Notes under the pieces: model-generated
Told to the model about the DNA's origin: nothing
The model's input: the letters and a program-made list of their open reading frames with translations, nothing else
The model's database searches: none
Position numbers and translations under genes: made by a program
In this document: piece by piece, positions 3,241 to 10,452 of the stretch
How the letters are laid out: each line of letters starts with the position of its first letter
Numbering within the stretch: position 1 is the stretch's first letter
IMG/VR virus record: IMGVR_UViG_3300016657_000126
Location: 120,885 to 184,884 of that record
Strand: one strand, 5' to 3'
Length of the DNA stretch: 64,000 nt
Origin: a virus

Positions 3241-3266
3241 AAGGGGTGAGGTTACCCTCACCCCTT
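3241..3266 (-). terminator. intrinsic terminator-like hairpin between SSB-like gene and recA
   Basis: 11-bp inverted repeat AAGGGGTGAGG/CCTCACCCCTT followed on - by CTTCTTT. Confidence 0.6.
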
Positions 3267-3309
3267 GAGTGTGTCCAACGATTACGTCCTACTCAAACGC
3301 GCTGATTTA

Positions 3310-5445
3310 TCAGCGATTTCCCGCGCGCTTGAGCAATTCGCCCATGCGGTGGATCTGGTTGGTATCCAGAGACTGGCCAGTCTTCGCGGCCTGGTCATTG
3401 AACGCGAGCAGCTGCTGGAGTTCGCTGTTCTCCTCGGGGCTCAACGGAGCGCCAGTCGCGCCGGGAGCGATGGTGGCGTTCTGCTGGATGGGCGGCTGCT
3501 GTTGGGGCGCCTGCTGCACAGCGGGCTGGATGGTCTGCTGCTGGGCGCCCTGAGCTACCGCGGCGTAGCCGGGCATCGCGGTGATGGCGCTCCACGGGAG
3601 GCTGTTGTCGCTGGGGGCGAACACCGCCGCGGGGTTAGTGCGCGCGAAGTTAACCGCATCGGCGATGGTCATGGGCGTTTGCATGACCGCCCCGTTGACC
3701 GCGGCGTAGATCATCACCGCGGGCGGCTGCTGCACGGGCGGCTGCTGCACGGGCGGCTGCTGCACGGGCGGCTGGTAGGCCTGCTGGACCGGCGCCTGTT
3801 GGATGGGGGCCTGCTGCGCGGGGGCGCCGAAGCCAGCGGGAGCGCCGCCACCGAAGCCCGCGGGAGCTCCGCCACCGAAACCGGCAGGAGCACCGGCAGG
3901 AGCACCGAAGCCAGCGGGAGCACCGGCAGGAGCACCGCCGAAGCCGCCAGCGGGAGCGCCGCCACCGAAGCCCGCGGGAGCACCGGCAGGAGCACCGAAG
4001 CCAGCGGGAGCACCGGCAGGAGCACCGCCGAAGCCAGCAGGCGCGCCAGCGGGAGCGCCGCCGAAGCCGCCCGCGGGAGCTCCGCCACCGAAACCGGCAG
4101 GGGCACCGCCGCCGAAGCCAGCGGGAGCACCGGCAGGAGCACCGAAGCCAGCGGGAGCACCGCCACCGAAGCCCGCGGGAGCTCCGCCACCGAAACCGGC
4201 AGGGGCACCGCCGCCGAAGCCAGCAGGCGCGCCAGCGGGAGCGCCGCCGAAGCCGCCAGCGGGAGCGCCGCCACCGAAGCCCGCGGGAGCTCCGCCACCG
4301 AAGCCAGCGGGAGCGCCGGTGGGGGCACCACCGAAGCCGCCAGCGGGCGCACCGCCGAAGCCACCGACAGGAGCGGCGCCCGCGGGGGCACCAAAACCGG
4401 CGGGAGTGTTGCCAAAGCCGCCCGCGGCAGCGCCGACAGCGGCACCAGGAATAGCGCCAGGCGCGCCGGTCATGCCGGTGCCTCCGCGCACATTGGCGCG
4501 GTGGCCGCAGGCGATGTGGATCAGCTCAAGCGGAAAGGCGCCGTCGCCGACCAACATGTCGACGATTTCCTGATACGACGGGATGCGCCAGATATCGAGC
4601 GAGCCGAGGTCGTAGCGATTGGCAAGCGCCTCCGGACCGACGGGAAACACGCGCTCGGTGCCGAGACAATTCTCGCGCTCGGTGAAGTGGAAGCCGAGGT
4701 AGGGAAATCCTCCGCTGTTGGGCGCGGGCGGAACGATTTTGATGCAGGTGAGCAAGCCGGTGTTCGGGTGCGTCACGTCGCCGAGCAGGAACTGTTGGAA
4801 GTTCGGGTCGCGCGGCTGCTGACCGTAGGAGGTGGGCCAGCTGAGCGTCTCCTTCAGCGCACCGAGCGACTGCGCCGAAGTCACCAACAGACCCTGCGTG
4901 AGTTGACCCTTGATTTGGGCGACTGCGTTCATCGCCGCCTTGACCTTGGGACGGCCGGGAAGCGGAACGATCTCCTTACCCGGACGGCGGGGATCCGCCT
5001 GCTTTTTGGTGAGACCGGCGAAGCGCGCATCGAGGCGAGCGGTGCGGGCGAGGTCCATGACCGGGCAAGGAGCCTGATCGGCGGTGATGCCGGCGAGGGT
5101 GAGCTGCTTGGGCGAGGTGAAGCTCATGCCGGAACGGCCGAGCCACTGATAGACGTAGCCGAGCACGAACCAGGAGGTAAAGGCCGGCGTGCCACCTTTG
5201 ACCTCGTTGTCCACGCGCCCGCTGTGCATGTCGCGGTAGGGGGCGAACGAGGTTTTGCGCGCCGCGTCGTGCGGGCTCATGTTGTCGTCCAGCGCCGGAA
5301 GGATGCGCGCCCACATGGGCTCCTTCTCGGTGGGGAAGATGGCGCGAACACCATCCTTGAAATACCGACCGGACGAATCGAATTCGTCGTCGACGACAGC
5401 AGCGGAACCAGCGGCAATGCGGTTGTTATTGGGAGCAGTAGACAT
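3310..5445 (-). CDS. putative ssDNA-binding/recombination protein with FG/G-A-P repeat tail, Q-rich segments and GYF_2-like module
   Basis: Globular N-terminal ~320 aa (WARILPA, CPV, as in gp32-like SSBs), located between pol and recA. About 22 GFG repeats follow. SSB role is inferred. Confidence 0.55.
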   Translation of the reverse strand: MSTAPNNNRIAAGSAAVVDDEFDSSGRYFKDGVRAIFPTEKEPMWARILPALDDNMSPHDAARKTSFAPYRDMHSGRVDNEVKGGTPAFTSWFVLGYVYQWLGRSGMSFTSPKQLTLAGITADQAPCPVMDLARTARLDARFAGLTKKQADPRRPGKEIVPLPGRPKVKAAMNAVAQIKGQLTQGLLVTSAQSLGALKETLSWPTSYGQQPRDPNFQQFLLGDVTHPNTGLLTCIKIVPPAPNSGGFPYLGFHFTERENCLGTERVFPVGPEALANRYDLGSLDIWRIPSYQEIVDMLVGDGAFPLELIHIACGHRANVRGGTGMTGAPGAIPGAAVGAAAGGFGNTPAGFGAPAGAAPVGGFGGAPAGGFGGAPTGAPAGFGGGAPAGFGGGAPAGGFGGAPAGAPAGFGGGAPAGFGGGAPAGFGGGAPAGFGAPAGAPAGFGGGAPAGFGGGAPAGGFGGAPAGAPAGFGGAPAGAPAGFGAPAGAPAGFGGGAPAGGFGGAPAGAPAGFGAPAGAPAGFGGGAPAGFGGGAPAGFGAPAQQAPIQQAPVQQAYQPPVQQPPVQQPPVQQPPAVMIYAAVNGAVMQTPMTIADAVNFARTNPAAVFAPSDNSLPWSAITAMPGYAAVAQGAQQQTIQPAVQQAPQQQPPIQQNATIAPGATGAPLSPEENSELQQLLAFNDQAAKTGQSLDTNQIHRMGELLKRAGNR
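3822..4425. repeat. coding tandem repeats (GFGG(G)APA / GAPA)
   Basis: Recurrent units such as ccgaagccagcgggagc and caccggcaggag, all multiples of 3 nt. Confidence 0.9.
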
Positions 5446-5462
5446 GATGAGAAATTAAGATT

Positions 5463-5687
5463 TTAAGTGGGATTCTGACTTTTGCGTTCGGACAAAACCT
5501 GGCGCGCTTTTGTTAGGTTGGCGCGACCGGCCGTGATTTTTGCCTGCGAGCGAGAACGCCCGCCTTTGGCTCCGCTGAGACTCAGGAAATTGCGAGTTTC
5601 TTGGGACAGCTTTGGACCTGCCGACTTTTTCCCTGAACGAGAACGGTCGGCGGCGCTCTCGCGTTTACGGGTTTGAAGTTTAGCCAC
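5463..5687 (-). CDS. small basic, probably DNA-binding protein
   Basis: 74 aa, K/R-rich, motif SGAKGGRSRSQAKITAGRAN; GTG start. Confidence 0.55.
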   Translation of the reverse strand: MAKLQTRKRESAADRSRSGKKSAGPKLSQETRNFLSLSGAKGGRSRSQAKITAGRANLTKARQVLSERKSQNPT

Positions 5688-5700
5688 GCTGACGAGTTCA

Positions 5701-5731
5701 ACAAGCCGCTTGTTATAGTCAAGCGGCTTGT
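5701..5731. promoter_or_regulatory. perfect 12-bp inverted repeat overlapping the polymerase stop, containing TTGACT on -
   Basis: ACAAGCCGCTTG-ttatagt-CAAGCGGCTTGT. Confidence 0.5.
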
Positions 5732-8700
5732 CGGAATTCTTCCTTCAACCAGACCGGATCGTTCGCCCAAGTCGGGTCGTCGAGCAGCTTGAGCTGGTCC
5801 TTCGATGGGCGCGACGACCAGGCGAGATTGAACTCGCCGGACGCCGGATAGAACCAGACGCGCCCATGGTCGAACCACGTGTTCTTCTCCGTCATGTAGA
5901 TCTCGTGCAGCCTAGAGACAAGGAAGCGCTCCTCCACCGGGCAGATGGACACACACGAGTCGTAGAGGATGGTCATCAGCCTGGCGTGCATACCGCGCCG
6001 ACGATACTCGTCCACGAGGTTGATGCCGGCGCGCGCTGAAGTCGCAGCTACGGACTCTTGGCACGGGAAGTTGCGCGCCACGCGTCCCATCGCCGACAGC
6101 TGGGCGCGGCGATCGCGCCCGCTGATGGAACCACCGAGCATACCGTAACCGGCGAAGTGGCGCCGGCGACCAGACTGCGCGACGAGGAAACCCGGATGCT
6201 CAGGCGCGCGCTGCAGATCCTCTTCCAGCCATCGAGTAGCCACCGGCTCGCGCTTTGCGATCGCGCCGAGGATCTTCGAGCCGGTGCCCTCCGGCGGCTT
6301 GAATCCGGCGTCGGACTCGATCTTGCGCTCAAGGGTGGAGTCTACCGCGCCATAGGCGGTGTTGGAGACCAGCACGCCGTTCGCGGTGAAGCGATGCCGC
6401 GGACCGGCGTTCACCAGATCGTAGACCGGCTCCAACGTGAGCTCGAACCCACGGGCACGGAGCTCCGCGATCAGGACATCGCGGGGACGACCTCGGTAGC
6501 CGTTGACGCCGAGTATCGCCGCAGGATTTCCTCCAGCGGCGTTCCCTTGTCGAACAACGCCCTTGCATGCGACGCCGAGCACTGGATTTCCGGGTGGGTG
6601 GCCATGAACTCGCGAACTATTTTGGAGACGTTCGGGCGCGATGCCTTGGTCCTCGCGATTTCGGCGATTTCCGCCGCAGTCTTTCCCTGCTTCAGGAGCT
6701 TGACCAGATAGTTGAACGAGAGAGCCGAGTGCGCAGCGTGCAGACGCCTGGCCTCCGCGTAAGTGTTCTCGGCTTCCGGATTCGCCGACGACTTCTTCCA
6801 CTGAGCCAGGATTTGAGCTTCGGTCCAGCCCCTCCAGACAAGCTTGCGCACCTGAGCCCGAGCGAACCCCACCTCCGGATGCGCCGCCAAGAATGCGTCC
6901 GCCTTCGCGAAATCCGAATTCGCCCGTAGCTGCTCCTTGGTGCGATACTCCCCGGCATTCCACTTCTCCACCAGCTGCTCCTCCGTCAGACCGGAGAAGA
7001 GCAGATTGCGGACTGTCCTGAACGCCAGCTTCACCTCCGGATGCGCCGCAACGAACGCTCGCGTCTTCGCTCCAAATGATCGGATCGAAAGACGCGTGTT
7101 CTCGAGATTGGTCCGACGGTCCACCAGGCGAAGATTGTCCGGCGAGTAAGGGCCGTCGTTGTCGATCCGATCGAAATCCTTCCCCTTGAAGGTCTCGCCC
7201 GGCCACTTGCTGAGCGCCCACGAGATGAAGTGCTCCTTGTCCTGAAACAGCACCTGGATTCCCCGCCCCTTGTAGTTGTAGGAGCTGGCGTGCGTCCACG
7301 TGTTGCAACGCTGCTTCATGGACTGAAACCGCGTGCGAAGCCGATAGCGAATTTCGTCCTTCTTCGGCGCCTGACACGCACAACGAATGCCTTTGCCAGA
7401 TTCCAGATGGTGTAGCCATTTCTGACGCACCACCTCGCAGCGCGGGCAAAATGTCTGCACCGCCAGATTGCCTTTGCTGTTTCGAAACAGCGCCGGCCTC
7501 AGTTGCAAACCCTGCAAGCCGAGCTTGGCCAGCCTCGCTGCCAGTTCGGGCGAGATCGAGACCTGCCAAAGCAGCTTCTCCGAAGAAGACCTCTCTTCCG
7601 TCCATAAGCCAGACACCGTGGTCGACGGTGGCACGGAGTCCTTGGTATTCGATGATGTGCTGTTCACCTTTGCAGATAAGCCCTTCGTGGCGGACCCAGT
7701 CAACTCCGTCCCACAAAAGATCGAAATCTTTAGATACTTCCTTGATTTTCTTTACACCATTGTTTGTTAATACTCCCACATCAGCCGGCAAGCAACTGAA
7801 GTTTCCCACCTTTCCAATGCCGTCGCGGTCCTTCTTCTTGTTGAGATACTCGCGGGGCTTTTCCTGCACCCATTCCGCCAGCGACCAGTGAAGGTCGTGC
7901 TTGGGGTGGCGCAGCTTTCCGTCTTTGCGCAAGAGCTCGTGTTCCTCGACTTTGCGGATCACCTTGCCCTCCTTCATGAGGTGCATGATGGCCTGCGGGT
8001 TTCGATTACCCTCGGGGATGCCGCAGTCAGCGTCGTAACGCAGGCGAACCGGCATCGTCTCCGTCCCTTCCTTAACGAGACCAAACTGAGTGTCCGGCTC
8101 GGTCATGAGCCGGATCAGATTCTCGTCGCCGCTCATGAACGCCTTACCGCGGATCTCGGCCGTGTCATAGTCATACTCGACGATGCACCAGCCCTTCGAT
8201 CCGGGCACTGGAGGAAGGCTGCTGATGTCGACGCACCCGCGGATGGACGGGATGTTCTTACCCACCTTCTCCACGCGGTCGTCGAGTTTCGGATACTGCA
8301 TCGCGCCGACCAGATATTTCTCGAACTTCTCGGGCAGACGGTTGGCTTCCTTCAGTTCGAGCAGCAGCTTTCCGACGCCCTCCGATATGCGCTTGTTGAC
8401 GTAGCTCGGCCAGTTAAGCGTATTCGGTTTCCAGCTACGAGGACGCCCGGTGTCGGTCGTGCTATACTGACAGTGCACGCGTTGATCGCTGCACAGCCAG
8501 AAGTGAAGACCGTTCTCCTTGGTCACCTCGCCTGTCTCTTCGTCGATTTCGGGCTCCTTCAGGAACGCCTTGCTCAGGTTACCGACGGCATTGAGGTTCA
8601 GCAGCTCTCCGATCGTCTCGTGCTTGTCCGCGAGAATCTGCAGCGTCTGCTTGTCGGTGGACGGCGTGAACTCCTTCTGCCTAGCCGGGGTCATGGCCAT

Positions 8701-10452
8701 GACCTTCTCCCACGAAGTTGTCGGCAGGCCCTTCTCTTTGTTGTTGGTCGATTTCACCGGAGTGAGGCCGATCACGTCAAAGAGCCAGCGCCGCATCATC
8801 GGAGCGCTTCGGATGTTGAACCCCGGTGCCTCGCGCATGTGGTGGAAGAACGCCAGCGCCTGGTCCTTCTTTTCAGGCCCGACCAGGTCCAGCAACTTCC
8901 GCTCGGCCTCACCGTGCTTCAGCGCCTCAGGGCTGGTCAGCAGCTGGAGACACTCCAGACCGACGGTGAGCCCACGCATGCCGAACGCCCCCTGCAGGAA
9001 GCGGAGAAACAGCGTGCGCGCCTCGTTCGCCACCCGCTGCTTAAATCGGATGTTCAGCTCCTGCGTGGCGAACGTAAACAGATCACGCAGCTCGTCCATG
9101 CGCTGCACGTTCATCGGAAGTCCGACGATCGCGAAGTTGGTGAACACGTCGCTCACGAACGGGAGGAACGTGTTCATGAAGTAGGCCGCGGTGCCTTCGG
9201 CGACCATCCTGCGCAGCAAATACGGCCATGCGCGGTAAGGCGTCAGCACGTCGTAGCAGCCGTAGGGCTCAATCAGTTTGTCGGGCACGTAACCGAAGCC
9301 GTCGTCCTCGCTCTGGCGGTTAGCCTTATACCAGAGCATCAGCTCGATGTCGTAGCGACCAAACGGCGTGTAGCGGATAGACAACTCTTCCAAACCGCCG
9401 CCGACGTCTTCGTCGACTACCTGCTGACCGAACTCAGTGTCGAACTCCGTGCGTTGATACCACTCCAGATCCAGGAATTTATCCATCCACGGGTAGTCCG
9501 CGGAGATGTGATGACCTAGATAGCGCGTCTGCTTTTTATTCAACACGCGGCCGAGAATTTGTCCGCAAGTCTTGTAAGGCGCGTTCATCACATACTCCGC
9601 GCGCTCATTCATGAACTGAAAGAAGAACGCGCGCGTCGGTGTAGGCGCGGCTTGGAAACTCCTCAGAAGACCATCCACGTGACTGCGGCCTTTCCACTCA
9701 CAGTCCACGGAGAACAGGCTGTATTTCTTTTCCTCCCACTCACGCACAACATTCTCCATCTGCTCCGTGTTGCGCACGAAGGTCATCTCGGAGGGAATCA
9801 CGTCAACGACCACGCCGTTGATTTGATCCCACATCCGTTTCACCTGCTTCATGTCCACATTGAAGCGCTCGATATACTCCGGCTTGAACACCGGCAGCAT
9901 GATGTCGGGCATCAGGTAGACGCGCGCGTTGACTAGCGCCGAGTGAAACCAACCACCCTGCAAATCGCTGATCGACCCCTTCACATCCACCAACACATCG
10001 AACGCCGGCTTTCCAAGGCAGACGATGATCTTCGGCTGGACGCGCTTTATCTCGGCGAGCAACGCCGGGGTTGCCATAGCGATGGCGTCGCGGTCGGGCT
10101 TCTTGCGCTCTTCCTTTGGGAGGAGCCACTTCACCAGGGCCGTGAAGTAGCAGTCGTCCATGTCGATCGCCGCGTTGCGCGCGCAGTCGGTGAGAATGAC
10201 GCCAGACCCACTCTTCAGATAGCGCGGCTTGTCCTCGATGGAAGCTCCGGTGAACGTGCGCTCCCGGTCCATCGCCTCGTCCTCCTGCAGCGACGTCTGG
10301 ATGAACATCACGTCGCTCGGCGTCTTTCCCGCCCCGGCGACAAACAAGACGTCCGACCAGCGGCGCGTGGTCTTTACGTCATGCGGATGTTCCGTGGGTC
10401 TCGGTGTAGCCAAAGCCACCCGAGGTTTGAATGAGCGGCGTTCTTCAAACAT
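5719..10452 (-). CDS. polA: family A DNA polymerase with N-terminal uracil-DNA-glycosylase-like domain (SPO1-type), 3'-5' exonuclease and an intein
   Basis: UDG-like YFTALVKW..EIKRVQPKIIVCLG; exonuclease SVDCEW/HHISAD/YGCYD; TDTGRPRSWKPN; motif A DYDTAEIR; motif B KVGNFS|TAYG split by intein; NFPCQ; motif C LYDS. Confidence 0.93.
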   Translation of the reverse strand: MFEERRSFKPRVALATPRPTEHPHDVKTTRRWSDVLFVAGAGKTPSDVMFIQTSLQEDEAMDRERTFTGASIEDKPRYLKSGSGVILTDCARNAAIDMDDCYFTALVKWLLPKEERKKPDRDAIAMATPALLAEIKRVQPKIIVCLGKPAFDVLVDVKGSISDLQGGWFHSALVNARVYLMPDIMLPVFKPEYIERFNVDMKQVKRMWDQINGVVVDVIPSEMTFVRNTEQMENVVREWEEKKYSLFSVDCEWKGRSHVDGLLRSFQAAPTPTRAFFFQFMNERAEYVMNAPYKTCGQILGRVLNKKQTRYLGHHISADYPWMDKFLDLEWYQRTEFDTEFGQQVVDEDVGGGLEELSIRYTPFGRYDIELMLWYKANRQSEDDGFGYVPDKLIEPYGCYDVLTPYRAWPYLLRRMVAEGTAAYFMNTFLPFVSDVFTNFAIVGLPMNVQRMDELRDLFTFATQELNIRFKQRVANEARTLFLRFLQGAFGMRGLTVGLECLQLLTSPEALKHGEAERKLLDLVGPEKKDQALAFFHHMREAPGFNIRSAPMMRRWLFDVIGLTPVKSTNNKEKGLPTTSWEKVMAMTPARQKEFTPSTDKQTLQILADKHETIGELLNLNAVGNLSKAFLKEPEIDEETGEVTKENGLHFWLCSDQRVHCQYSTTDTGRPRSWKPNTLNWPSYVNKRISEGVGKLLLELKEANRLPEKFEKYLVGAMQYPKLDDRVEKVGKNIPSIRGCVDISSLPPVPGSKGWCIVEYDYDTAEIRGKAFMSGDENLIRLMTEPDTQFGLVKEGTETMPVRLRYDADCGIPEGNRNPQAIMHLMKEGKVIRKVEEHELLRKDGKLRHPKHDLHWSLAEWVQEKPREYLNKKKDRDGIGKVGNFSCLPADVGVLTNNGVKKIKEVSKDFDLLWDGVDWVRHEGLICKGEQHIIEYQGLRATVDHGVWLMDGREVFFGEAALAGLDLARTGSEAGQARLAGFATEAGAVSKQQRQSGGADILPALRGGASEMATPSGIWQRHSLCVSGAEEGRNSLSASHAVSVHEAALQHVDARQLLQLQGAGNPGAVSGQGALHLVGAQQVAGRDLQGEGFRSDRQRRPLLAGQSSPGGPSDQSREHASFDPIIWSEDASVRCGASGGEAGVQDSPQSALLRSDGGAAGGEVECRGVSHQGAATGEFGFREGGRILGGASGGGVRSGSGAQACLEGLDRSSNPGSVEEVVGESGSREHLRGGQASARCALGSLVQLSGQAPEAGKDCGGNRRNREDQGIAPERLQNSSRVHGHPPGNPVLGVACKGVVRQGNAAGGNPAAILGVNGYRGRPRDVLIAELRARGFELTLEPVYDLVNAGPRHRFTANGVLVSNTAYGAVDSTLERKIESDAGFKPPEGTGSKILGAIAKREPVATRWLEEDLQRAPEHPGFLVAQSGRRRHFAGYGMLGGSISGRDRRAQLSAMGRVARNFPCQESVAATSARAGINLVDEYRRRGMHARLMTILYDSCVSICPVEERFLVSRLHEIYMTEKNTWFDHGRVWFYPASGEFNLAWSSRPSKDQLKLLDDPTWANDPVWLKEEFRQAA
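6361..7794 (-). mobile_element. intein (478 aa) in polymerase motif B
   Basis: Starts CLPADVGVLT, block B ATVDHGV, ends VYDLVNAGPRHRFTANGVLVSN followed by Thr(+1). Removal restores KVGNFSTAYG. Confidence 0.92.
6471..7703 (-). CDS. HNH homing endonuclease nested out-of-frame inside the intein
   Basis: CPRC..CAC, MKQRC, YKGRGI, DRIDNDGPYSPDNLRLV...N, then four HTH-like repeats (AHPE..G.T.E). +1 frame relative to polA; start codon uncertain (TTG). Confidence 0.85.
   Translation of the reverse strand: MTGSATKGLSAKVNSTSSNTKDSVPPSTTVSGLWTEERSSSEKLLWQVSISPELAARLAKLGLQGLQLRPALFRNSKGNLAVQTFCPRCEVVRQKWLHHLESGKGIRCACQAPKKDEIRYRLRTRFQSMKQRCNTWTHASSYNYKGRGIQVLFQDKEHFISWALSKWPGETFKGKDFDRIDNDGPYSPDNLRLVDRRTNLENTRLSIRSFGAKTRAFVAAHPEVKLAFRTVRNLLFSGLTEEQLVEKWNAGEYRTKEQLRANSDFAKADAFLAAHPEVGFARAQVRKLVWRGWTEAQILAQWKKSSANPEAENTYAEARRLHAAHSALSFNYLVKLLKQGKTAAEIAEIARTKASRPNVSKIVREFMATHPEIQCSASHARALFDKGTPLEEILRRYSASTATEVVPAMS

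Follow-up and report, generated by a model that had tools for sequence, protein, structure and literature searches.

Can one stretch of phage DNA encode a self-splicing intein in one reading frame and a complete nuclease gene in another, and if so, what keeps both frames open? The question is raised by a DNA polymerase gene in a virus of the IMG/VR collection (record IMGVR_UViG_3300016657_000126; 196,897 bp, 62% guanine plus cytosine (GC), completeness 100% by CheckV estimate), of which we analysed a window of 64,000 nucleotides (nt), corresponding to positions 120,885 to 184,884 of the record. The polymerase precursor of 1577 amino acids (aa) has 478 surplus residues within motif B, beginning with Cys and ending with Ser-Asn, followed by Thr. 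An original prediction, made from the letters of the window alone, had interpreted these residues as an intein whose homing endonuclease is encoded out of frame, and had proposed searches with profile hidden Markov models in both frames and a comparison of frame-wise selection among homologues as checks. Our analysis supports this dual-coding reading and confirms that the locus is a genuine, selected case, in which the polymerase frame encodes the splicing domain and the +1 frame a complete nuclease gene.

Two overlapping frames under different constraints

The intein frame is open for all 478 codons (positions 7794-6361 on the minus strand), from C1 at one end to S477-N478 at the other, followed by T at +1, and inside it the +1 frame is free of stops over 426 codons (7751-6474), of which the nuclease open reading frame (ORF) occupies 410 (Table 1). 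Both the length of the intein frame and the shared openness of about 410 codons had been pointed out beforehand, and the latter is far beyond chance. When the nuclease protein was kept fixed and its synonymous codons were either permuted or drawn from the usage of the genome, a mean of 10.4-11.7 stops was expected in the polymerase frame, versus 0 observed, and 0 of 20,000 shuffles came out without stops. The third frame, which served as a control in the same shuffles, had 6 stops for an expectation of 5.3-6.3. Across the coding regions of the genome, the equivalent off-frame has 1.7% stops, and its sole run of at least 350 open codons is the nuclease/intein overlap. Synthesis of the polymerase via double programmed frameshifting was considered and rejected, as it would not demand a stop-free frame 0.

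The two frames also differ in composition and in the selection acting on them. Inside the intein, the GC content at third codon positions is 0.74 in the +1 frame and 0.50 in the polymerase frame, with a value of about 0.80, the bias typical of this genome, in the exteins. Selection was measured on the nuclease family rather than on the window copy alone because no close relative of the phage was found; a blastn search of phage genomes with the polymerase gene gave no match. Over 79 gap-free codons of the nuclease core, the relatives compared in pairs share on average 67% of their amino acids when read in the +1 frame and 32% when read in the polymerase frame. The proportion of nonsynonymous differences (pN) in the +1 frame is 0.14-0.31 versus 0.6-0.98 for synonymous differences (pS), and in the polymerase frame pN is the larger of the two in almost all pairs. 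The frame-wise comparison among homologues thus came out as a dual-coding locus predicts: purifying selection acts on the nuclease frame only, and it is strongly supported that the avoidance of stops is the sole constraint on the polymerase-frame linker between the two halves of the splicing domain.

Each frame casts a shadow on the other. The conservation of LQGxGxRxDRQ in the polymerase frame is the shadow of the nuclease motif DFDRIDN, and the conserved N-terminal domain of the intein is mirrored likewise in the first ~65 residues of the nuclease ORF. A candidate helix-turn-helix at the start of the +1 ORF, SISPELAARLAKLG, was rejected on these grounds; it mirrors FFGEAALxGLxLAxT of the intein frame and is present in mini-inteins, too.

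An intein in polymerase motif B

Excision of the insert yields GKVGNFS/TAYGAV, to be compared with GKVGNFSTTYGAV (P0005) and GKVGNFSTAYGAT in the nearest intein-less homologues, and the predicted placement of the insert in motif B is confirmed by this restoration. The polymerase has 302 database homologues, mostly 1050-1140 aa in length, the nearest of which, P0005, is 65% identical and intein-less. Among 119 listed homologues, a motif-B intein is absent in 86, and nine have an intein at the same site as the window copy; two of these nine (P0036 and P0114) are mini-inteins of 146-152 aa that lack a nuclease.

Because the Pfam and NCBIfam models miss this intein, its fold was modelled. The AlphaFold model of the Hint domain (residues 1-97 plus 433-478) matched gp41-1 with a Z score of 15.0, followed by NrdJ-1 (14.8), Mtu RecA (14.7) and NpuDnaB (14.4), and the top 33 structural matches of the intein model were Hint-fold proteins, nearly all of them inteins. 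A sequence search of the PDB with the intein profile returned chance-level matches only. We aligned the window copy with seven same-site inserts of other metagenomic polymerases, and in these eight inteins C1, T56-V-D-H59, N478 and T+1 are invariant, as are V457, Y458, D459, N462-P465, V476, S477 and N478 in the C-terminal splicing domain; the N-terminal splicing domain is conserved across the eight and in the mini-inteins P0036 and P0114. Since the lineage is divergent, class-1 membership was judged on fold and motifs, and by this modelled fold and these motifs the insert is a class-1 intein with a predicted complete Hint domain. The penultimate Ser in place of His, noted beforehand in the window copy, turned out to be a family trait (VSN in 8/8 aligned inteins). 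Ser for His at this position is a tolerated variation and not defining for class-1 inteins.

The middle of the insert has none of these properties. Residues 98-432 are modelled with a predicted local distance difference test score (pLDDT) below 50 throughout and have no match among the PHROG families, in line with the earlier description of a non-globular sequence. Motif B is essential, so the unspliced polymerase would be inactive, which is an indirect argument for splicing.

Recurrence of the layout in other polymerases

The arrangement is not confined to the window. Seven polymerases that are 41-48% identical to that of the window carry an insert at the same NFS/C...SN/T site, and in 7/7 the nuclease ORF lies in the +1 frame. 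These relatives span 39-59% GC, and each has 0 stops in the polymerase frame versus 7-15 expected (P0 at most 4e-4 each). In IMG/VR, a profile scan returned 17 loci, in 13 of which (L010-L022) the nuclease is embedded in the +1 frame of a PolA motif-B intein; the 13 embedded loci use three or four insertion points (NFS/C, NF/C, NFG[FL]/C) and belong to different polymerase families.

A further example comes from Jerseyvirus vB-SeS-01 (OP494211), in which a nuclease ORF (L001:2869-3615, plus strand) lies inside the polymerase coding sequence (L001:1439-4537) at a +2 offset, and the host frame has 0 stops versus 4.7 expected (P0 0.0008). Similar matches were obtained by tblastn in the Salmonella phages AG11, PVP-SE2 and S3P, and the Jerseyvirus nuclease ORF is unannotated in the records seen.

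Other arrangements of the same parts occur at PolA motif B. In P0131, N-extein, N-terminal intein half and nuclease share one frame, followed by a stop; in P0259, the nuclease is in frame with the C-terminal intein half and the C-extein; and in P0193, motif B leads directly into the nuclease in an intron-like fashion. Judged by sequence, these three could be split-intein forms, intron forms or frameshifts.

The overprinted nuclease

Profile searches of the two frames gave a clear division, with the nuclease ORF matching the PHROG 'HNH endonuclease' families phrog_3377 (E 7.9e-21) and phrog_374 (E 5.7e-20) and the polymerase-frame middle of the intein matching none. AlphaFold, run on an alignment of 80 relatives, modelled nuclease residues 76-410 with a mean pLDDT of 93. 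The Cys residues that had been predicted to bind zinc belong to a ribbon-like element, and all four are at least 90% conserved in the 80 family members. R179, Y186 and N190 of the ORF (R104, Y111 and N115 in the model) are invariant across these members. The secondary structure of the core consists of two strands and a helix (E100-104, E116-120 and H121-132 in model numbering), in which R179, at the end of the first strand, occupies the position of the catalytic His, and Y186 lies in the loop.

The best structural match to this core was PacI (3m7k_A; Z 6.1, root-mean-square deviation 2.8, 79 aligned residues, 22% identity; VIA-align). In Foldseek, PacI and Gme HNH ranked only at E 3-5, and the whole nuclease model had no match below E 0.8, a failure that is probably explained by its elongated multi-domain shape; a sequence search of the PDB with the nuclease profile gave chance-level matches only. 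His-Me finger group 20, which includes PacI (PDB 3m7k/3ldy), lacks the catalytic His and has a Tyr in the loop instead (PMC5714182). The assignment as a clear HNH nuclease therefore stands as far as the PHROG families are concerned but not as a canonical one, because an invariant Arg replaces the catalytic His, PacI is the best match and Pfam HNH models fail. From the model, the enzyme may instead be PacI-like, of an Arg/Tyr type, with a loop Tyr that we infer to be the equivalent of that in PacI.

The C-terminal part consists of four tandem three-helix modules, whose helices (H135-H322 in model numbering) have high pLDDT values and which, judged by the model, are probably DNA-binding. They resemble UBA/CUE-like three-helix bundles with a Z of about 5. 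The fourfold repeat that had been described is real in this sense, but the helix-turn-helix likeness is weak (HTH_7, E 3.6e-4). The number of modules varies from 1 to 4 in relatives. The family as a whole has 28,273 representatives at E <=1e-3, mostly free-standing and 170-300 aa long, and in a metagenome scan with P0131 all of the 48 relatives examined were free-standing and none was embedded.

The missing His raises the possibility of a role other than homing, in which a catalytically dead His-Me finger would act as a DNA-binding or regulatory protein in the service of the phage or of the element. The invariant Arg at the canonical His position and the modest PacI match (Z 6.1) fit this idea, and two His-Me groups without the His are thought to be inactive (PMC5714182). 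The invariant loop Tyr and the conserved Asn residues, however, fit the active PacI type, the sporadic distribution of same-site inteins is what homing predicts, and at PolA motif B the same family also occurs with in-frame inteins and in an intron-like setting. We therefore regard a dead nuclease as unlikely.

Probable translation of the nuclease

As had been noticed, there is no ATG near the 5′ end of the nuclease ORF, and its first Met falls inside the nuclease core. Comparison with relatives points to an internal start all the same. Six of the eight same-site copies, like five of the IMG/VR loci, have an ATG of the +1 frame over the His/Tyr-Glu/Asp codons of the intein, at intein codon 34, usually with a stop codon just upstream. 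The ATG-less copies are those of the window and of L004, both of which have ACG, together with a TTG (window) or GTG (L004) five codons upstream, at a position that is a stop codon in most of the ATG-bearing copies. In a second lineage, the ATG lies over Tyr-Asp-Gly at codon 48-49, preceded at a distance of 8-9 nt by GAGG or GGAGG, and the frame becomes open 1-2 codons earlier. These comparisons make an internal start the probable mode of nuclease translation. Of the two possibilities left by the original prediction, a TTG or GTG start or a frameshift, the first is supported by the relatives and the second is disfavoured by the conserved ATG and its compensation where lost.

The window copy has no Shine-Dalgarno motif at a usable distance from the TTG. 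Because the genes of the phage match the background in this respect (Shine-Dalgarno-like motif at 17 of 111 likely gene starts; background 16%), its absence at the TTG is weak evidence; the host of the phage probably does not rely on initiation led by such motifs. A mini-ORF, ATG GTG TAA (7752-7760, minus strand), precedes the nuclease TTG by 16 codons in the same +1 frame.

The loss of the conserved ATG might also mean that the nuclease gene of the window copy is a silent relic, no longer expressed, and that the intein is kept because splicing must continue. This would agree with the ACG now standing at the start position and with Pro in place of the His in the 'GHY' common to the seven closest relatives. 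But the 410-codon ORF is intact and has kept all invariant and nearly invariant residues of the family, its product is modelled with a pLDDT of 93, and a TTG stands where L004 has GTG. The Pro in 'DGPY' was dropped as a sign of decay, as GPY or GNY is also found in other members (P0196, P0262 and P0128). On balance, a relic seems improbable.

A programmed +1 ribosomal frameshift, by which a fusion of N-extein, N-terminal intein half and nuclease would be made with no start codon of its own, is quite unlikely. The window copy, with neither an ATG nor a usably spaced Shine-Dalgarno motif, would suit such a mechanism, and P0131 demonstrates that a single-frame fusion of these three parts exists in nature. 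Yet the ATG is found at a fixed position, TTG or GTG compensates exactly where it is lost, a stop lies a few codons before it in most ATG-bearing copies, and a sister lineage combines a Shine-Dalgarno motif with an ATG. No conserved slippery site was seen in the aligned N-domain region, for which no formal search for frameshift signals or stimulating RNA structures was run.

Two compensating indels in the contig, which the original prediction had named as the finding that would overturn it and which a metagenomic assembly, frame switches near domain boundaries and in-frame combinations of nuclease and intein halves elsewhere (P0131, P0259) might suggest, can be dismissed almost entirely: they would yield an ordinary off-frame with ~10 stops, of which there are none (0/20,000 shuffles), and the same +1 offset recurs in 7 plus 13 independent assemblies of different projects (20 in total) and a +2 offset in finished Jerseyvirus genomes.

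A probable composite mobile element

With these alternatives weighed, we consider it very probable that the locus is a mobile composite element in PolA motif B, made up of a splicing intein and an overprinted homing nuclease gene. It is strongly supported that the polymerase would be translated straight through frame 0, giving a precursor in which the Hint halves are joined by ~335 structureless residues. The intein would then splice out, restoring GKVGNFS-TAYGAV. The nuclease would be initiated independently within the region encoding the intein N-domain, at the TTG at 7703 in the window copy and at an ATG over the His-Glu-Gly codons in most relatives. During co-infection, the enzyme would cut intein-less polymerase alleles near motif B, and repair would copy intein and nuclease together, the process known as homing. 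Most likely, such elements originated when a free-standing nuclease gene landed in a mini-intein, the survivors being those insertions that left the host frame open.

Several observations weigh against the composite element. At E values up to 5, neither the whole intein nor its halves nor the homologous mini-inteins had an intein or Hint match in Pfam or NCBIfam. The nuclease matched no model of the HNH clan in Pfam (PF01844, PF13392 and relatives) at E up to 5, and none in NCBIfam; its structural likeness to PacI reaches only Z 6.1, with Arg in place of the catalytic His. The window copy lacks the conserved ATG, and the GGAG near its TTG abuts that codon, a spacing that is unusable for a Shine-Dalgarno motif. 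Finally, no close relative of the phage turned up when IMG/VR was scanned with single proteins, namely the nuclease and the N-extein.

Features of the locus and neighbouring genes

The coordinates of all elements are collected in Table 1. Pfam matches of the polymerase precursor were UDG (9.7e-11), DNA_pol_A_exo1 (8e-07) and DNA_pol_A (1.1e-11). The adjoining gene (3310-5445, minus strand) encodes a protein in which about 20 GFG repeats, set between Gly/Ala/Pro spacers, give way to Q/P repeats. Two long antisense ORFs, of 733 aa (3265-5466, plus strand) and 543 aa (7888-9519, plus strand), face real genes; they are non-genes, a low-complexity side product of codon use rich in GC at third positions.

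Table 1 Elements of the polymerase locus, in positions of the 64,000-nt window
Feature	Positions	Strand	Remarks
DNA polymerase precursor gene	5719-10452	-	1577-aa ORF: family-4 uracil-DNA glycosylase (UDG)-like, 3′-5′ exonuclease and PolA domains; intein in motif B
N-extein	7795-10452	-	C-terminal end ...GIGKVGNFS
Class-1 intein (judged on modelled fold and motifs)	6361-7794	-	478 aa, polymerase frame; C1 ... T56-x-x-H59 ... S477-N478 / T+1
N-terminal splicing domain	7504-7794	-	Intein residues 1-97; pLDDT mostly 82-95 to about residue 90
Polymerase-frame linker	6499-7503	-	Intein residues 98-432; stop-free, unconserved, predicted disordered; overprinted by the nuclease gene
C-terminal splicing domain	6361-6498	-	Intein residues 433-478, ending ...EPVYDLVNAGPRHRFTANGVLVSN; pLDDT mostly 87-95
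C-extein	5719-6360	-	Begins TAYGAV...; stop codon counted in
Nuclease ORF	6471-7703	-	+1 frame, 410 codons plus TGA, wholly within the intein
Likely nuclease start, TTG	7701-7703	-	First ATG/GTG/TTG past the upstream stop
ACG in place of the conserved ATG	7686-7688	-	Overlaps the intein His-Glu codons: CAC GAA here, CAT GAA in relatives
Cys4 zinc-ribbon-like element	7374-7448	-	CPRC...CAC, ORF residues 86-110; four Cys at least 90% conserved in 80 members
Nuclease core	7092-7343	-	ORF residues 121-204; beta-loop-beta-alpha unit at DFDRIDNDGPYSPDNLRLVDRRTNLENTR
Four tandem three-helix modules	6513-7070	-	~40 aa each; AHPEV...VRNLL..G.T..QI..W

Comparison with known systems and significance

The original prediction described out-of-frame intein endonucleases as rarely noted in phages; they are rare, but the layout as such is already known, from preprints of 2025-26, for LAGLIDADG and endonuclease VII-like enzymes, and it is the nuclease family and the host site that differ here. 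A close parallel is found in actinobacteriophage inteins, in which an endonuclease VII-like homing endonuclease is encoded in reading frame 3 (bioRxiv 10.1101/2025.01.02.630785). Common to both are an out-of-frame nuclease on the same strand, probably of the His-Me superfamily in the PolA elements as well, and an in-frame middle that is predicted to be structureless, and the authors of that study propose that a free-standing homing endonuclease gene invaded the intein; HNH is listed there solely as an in-frame intein domain (bioRxiv 10.1101/2025.01.02.630785). In contrast to the actinobacteriophage inteins, the elements described here have a PacI-like Arg/Tyr nuclease with a zinc ribbon and helical repeats, use a +1 offset, sit in PolA motif B and are found in uncultured large phages.

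In a cyanobacterial DnaX intein, a LAGLIDADG endonuclease is encoded in a +2 ORF, a finding for which Gorbalenya 1998 is credited, and the ratio of nonsynonymous to synonymous substitution rates is low in the endonuclease frame and exceeds 1 in that of the host gene (bioRxiv 10.64898/2026.09.14.751524). This frame-dependent selection is shared with the PolA intein family, as are the overlapping frames for splicing and endonuclease, the coexistence of mini-intein and intein-free alleles and a proposed start codon for the endonuclease. The DnaX case differs in its LAGLIDADG rather than His-Me enzyme, its cellular host, the dnaX gene and the +2 offset. ShiLan-type insertions in actinophage DNA methylases contain an out-of-frame HNH enzyme with a proposed internal GTG start (PMC11855218). 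They resemble the PolA insert in that an HNH-type nuclease is hidden out of frame, in an insertion through which the host frame stays open, and in the proposal of a non-ATG start; but splicing domains are absent from the ShiLan insertion, which is no intein, whereas the Hint domain of the PolA insert is predicted to be complete. The PacI-like nuclease family, PolA motif B and Jerseyvirus are unreported in these three papers on out-of-frame endonucleases (two bioRxiv preprints and PMC11855218).

We see the arguments as evenly balanced on whether PolA motif-B inteins with a +1 overprinted PacI-like nuclease form a large class that is undescribed in the literature, spread over several polymerase families and insertion points and including Jerseyvirus, with conserved intein codons (His-Glu-Gly or Tyr-Asp-Gly) doubling as the site of the nuclease start codon. 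If they do, the placement of the start codon would lock the splicing domain and the expression of the nuclease together genetically, and the class would be the commonest natural case in which overlapping genes for an intein and a homing endonuclease co-evolve, one that can be tested in laboratory phages. The main value of the find lies in its being part of a large, experimentally tractable class. The case favours the view of intein origins in which the splicing domain came first and the endonuclease invaded later, since nature offers mini-inteins alongside dual-coded and in-frame forms, as well as free-standing nucleases of this family in their thousands. For annotation, the case carries a caution: what gene callers and domain searches report is an intein whose middle, of 335 residues, goes unexplained, and the nuclease gene is missed, Salmonella phages with finished genomes being no exception. 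The overprinted frame, kept free of stops, offers a compact natural system for studying codon sharing by two overlapping genes, and a nuclease family with modular helical repeats may supply new site-specific DNA-cutting enzymes.

PacI itself, to which the nuclease is tentatively likened for a zinc-stabilised beta-beta-alpha-metal architecture, the absence of a catalytic His and a Tyr in the inter-strand loop, is a free-standing restriction enzyme; the likeness has no counterpart in a sequence-level match and amounts to Z 6.1 at 22% identity, with the equivalence of the Tyr presumed. A relative in a cultivated phage is the Jerseyvirus polymerase (OP494211, 'intein-containing DNA polymerase precursor'), which has a homologous motif-B intein with the motifs CL..VLT, WDG/WSG..W, T.DH and EPVYDL. 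It differs from the window copy in the +2 offset of the nuclease, an insertion four residues earlier in motif B and a canonical His-Asn/Cys C-terminus, and its nuclease is shorter and has no four-module array. Nevertheless, that nuclease is homologous (~30% identity; DRID..G.Y...N) and lies out of frame, in a host frame that avoids stops, just as in the window.

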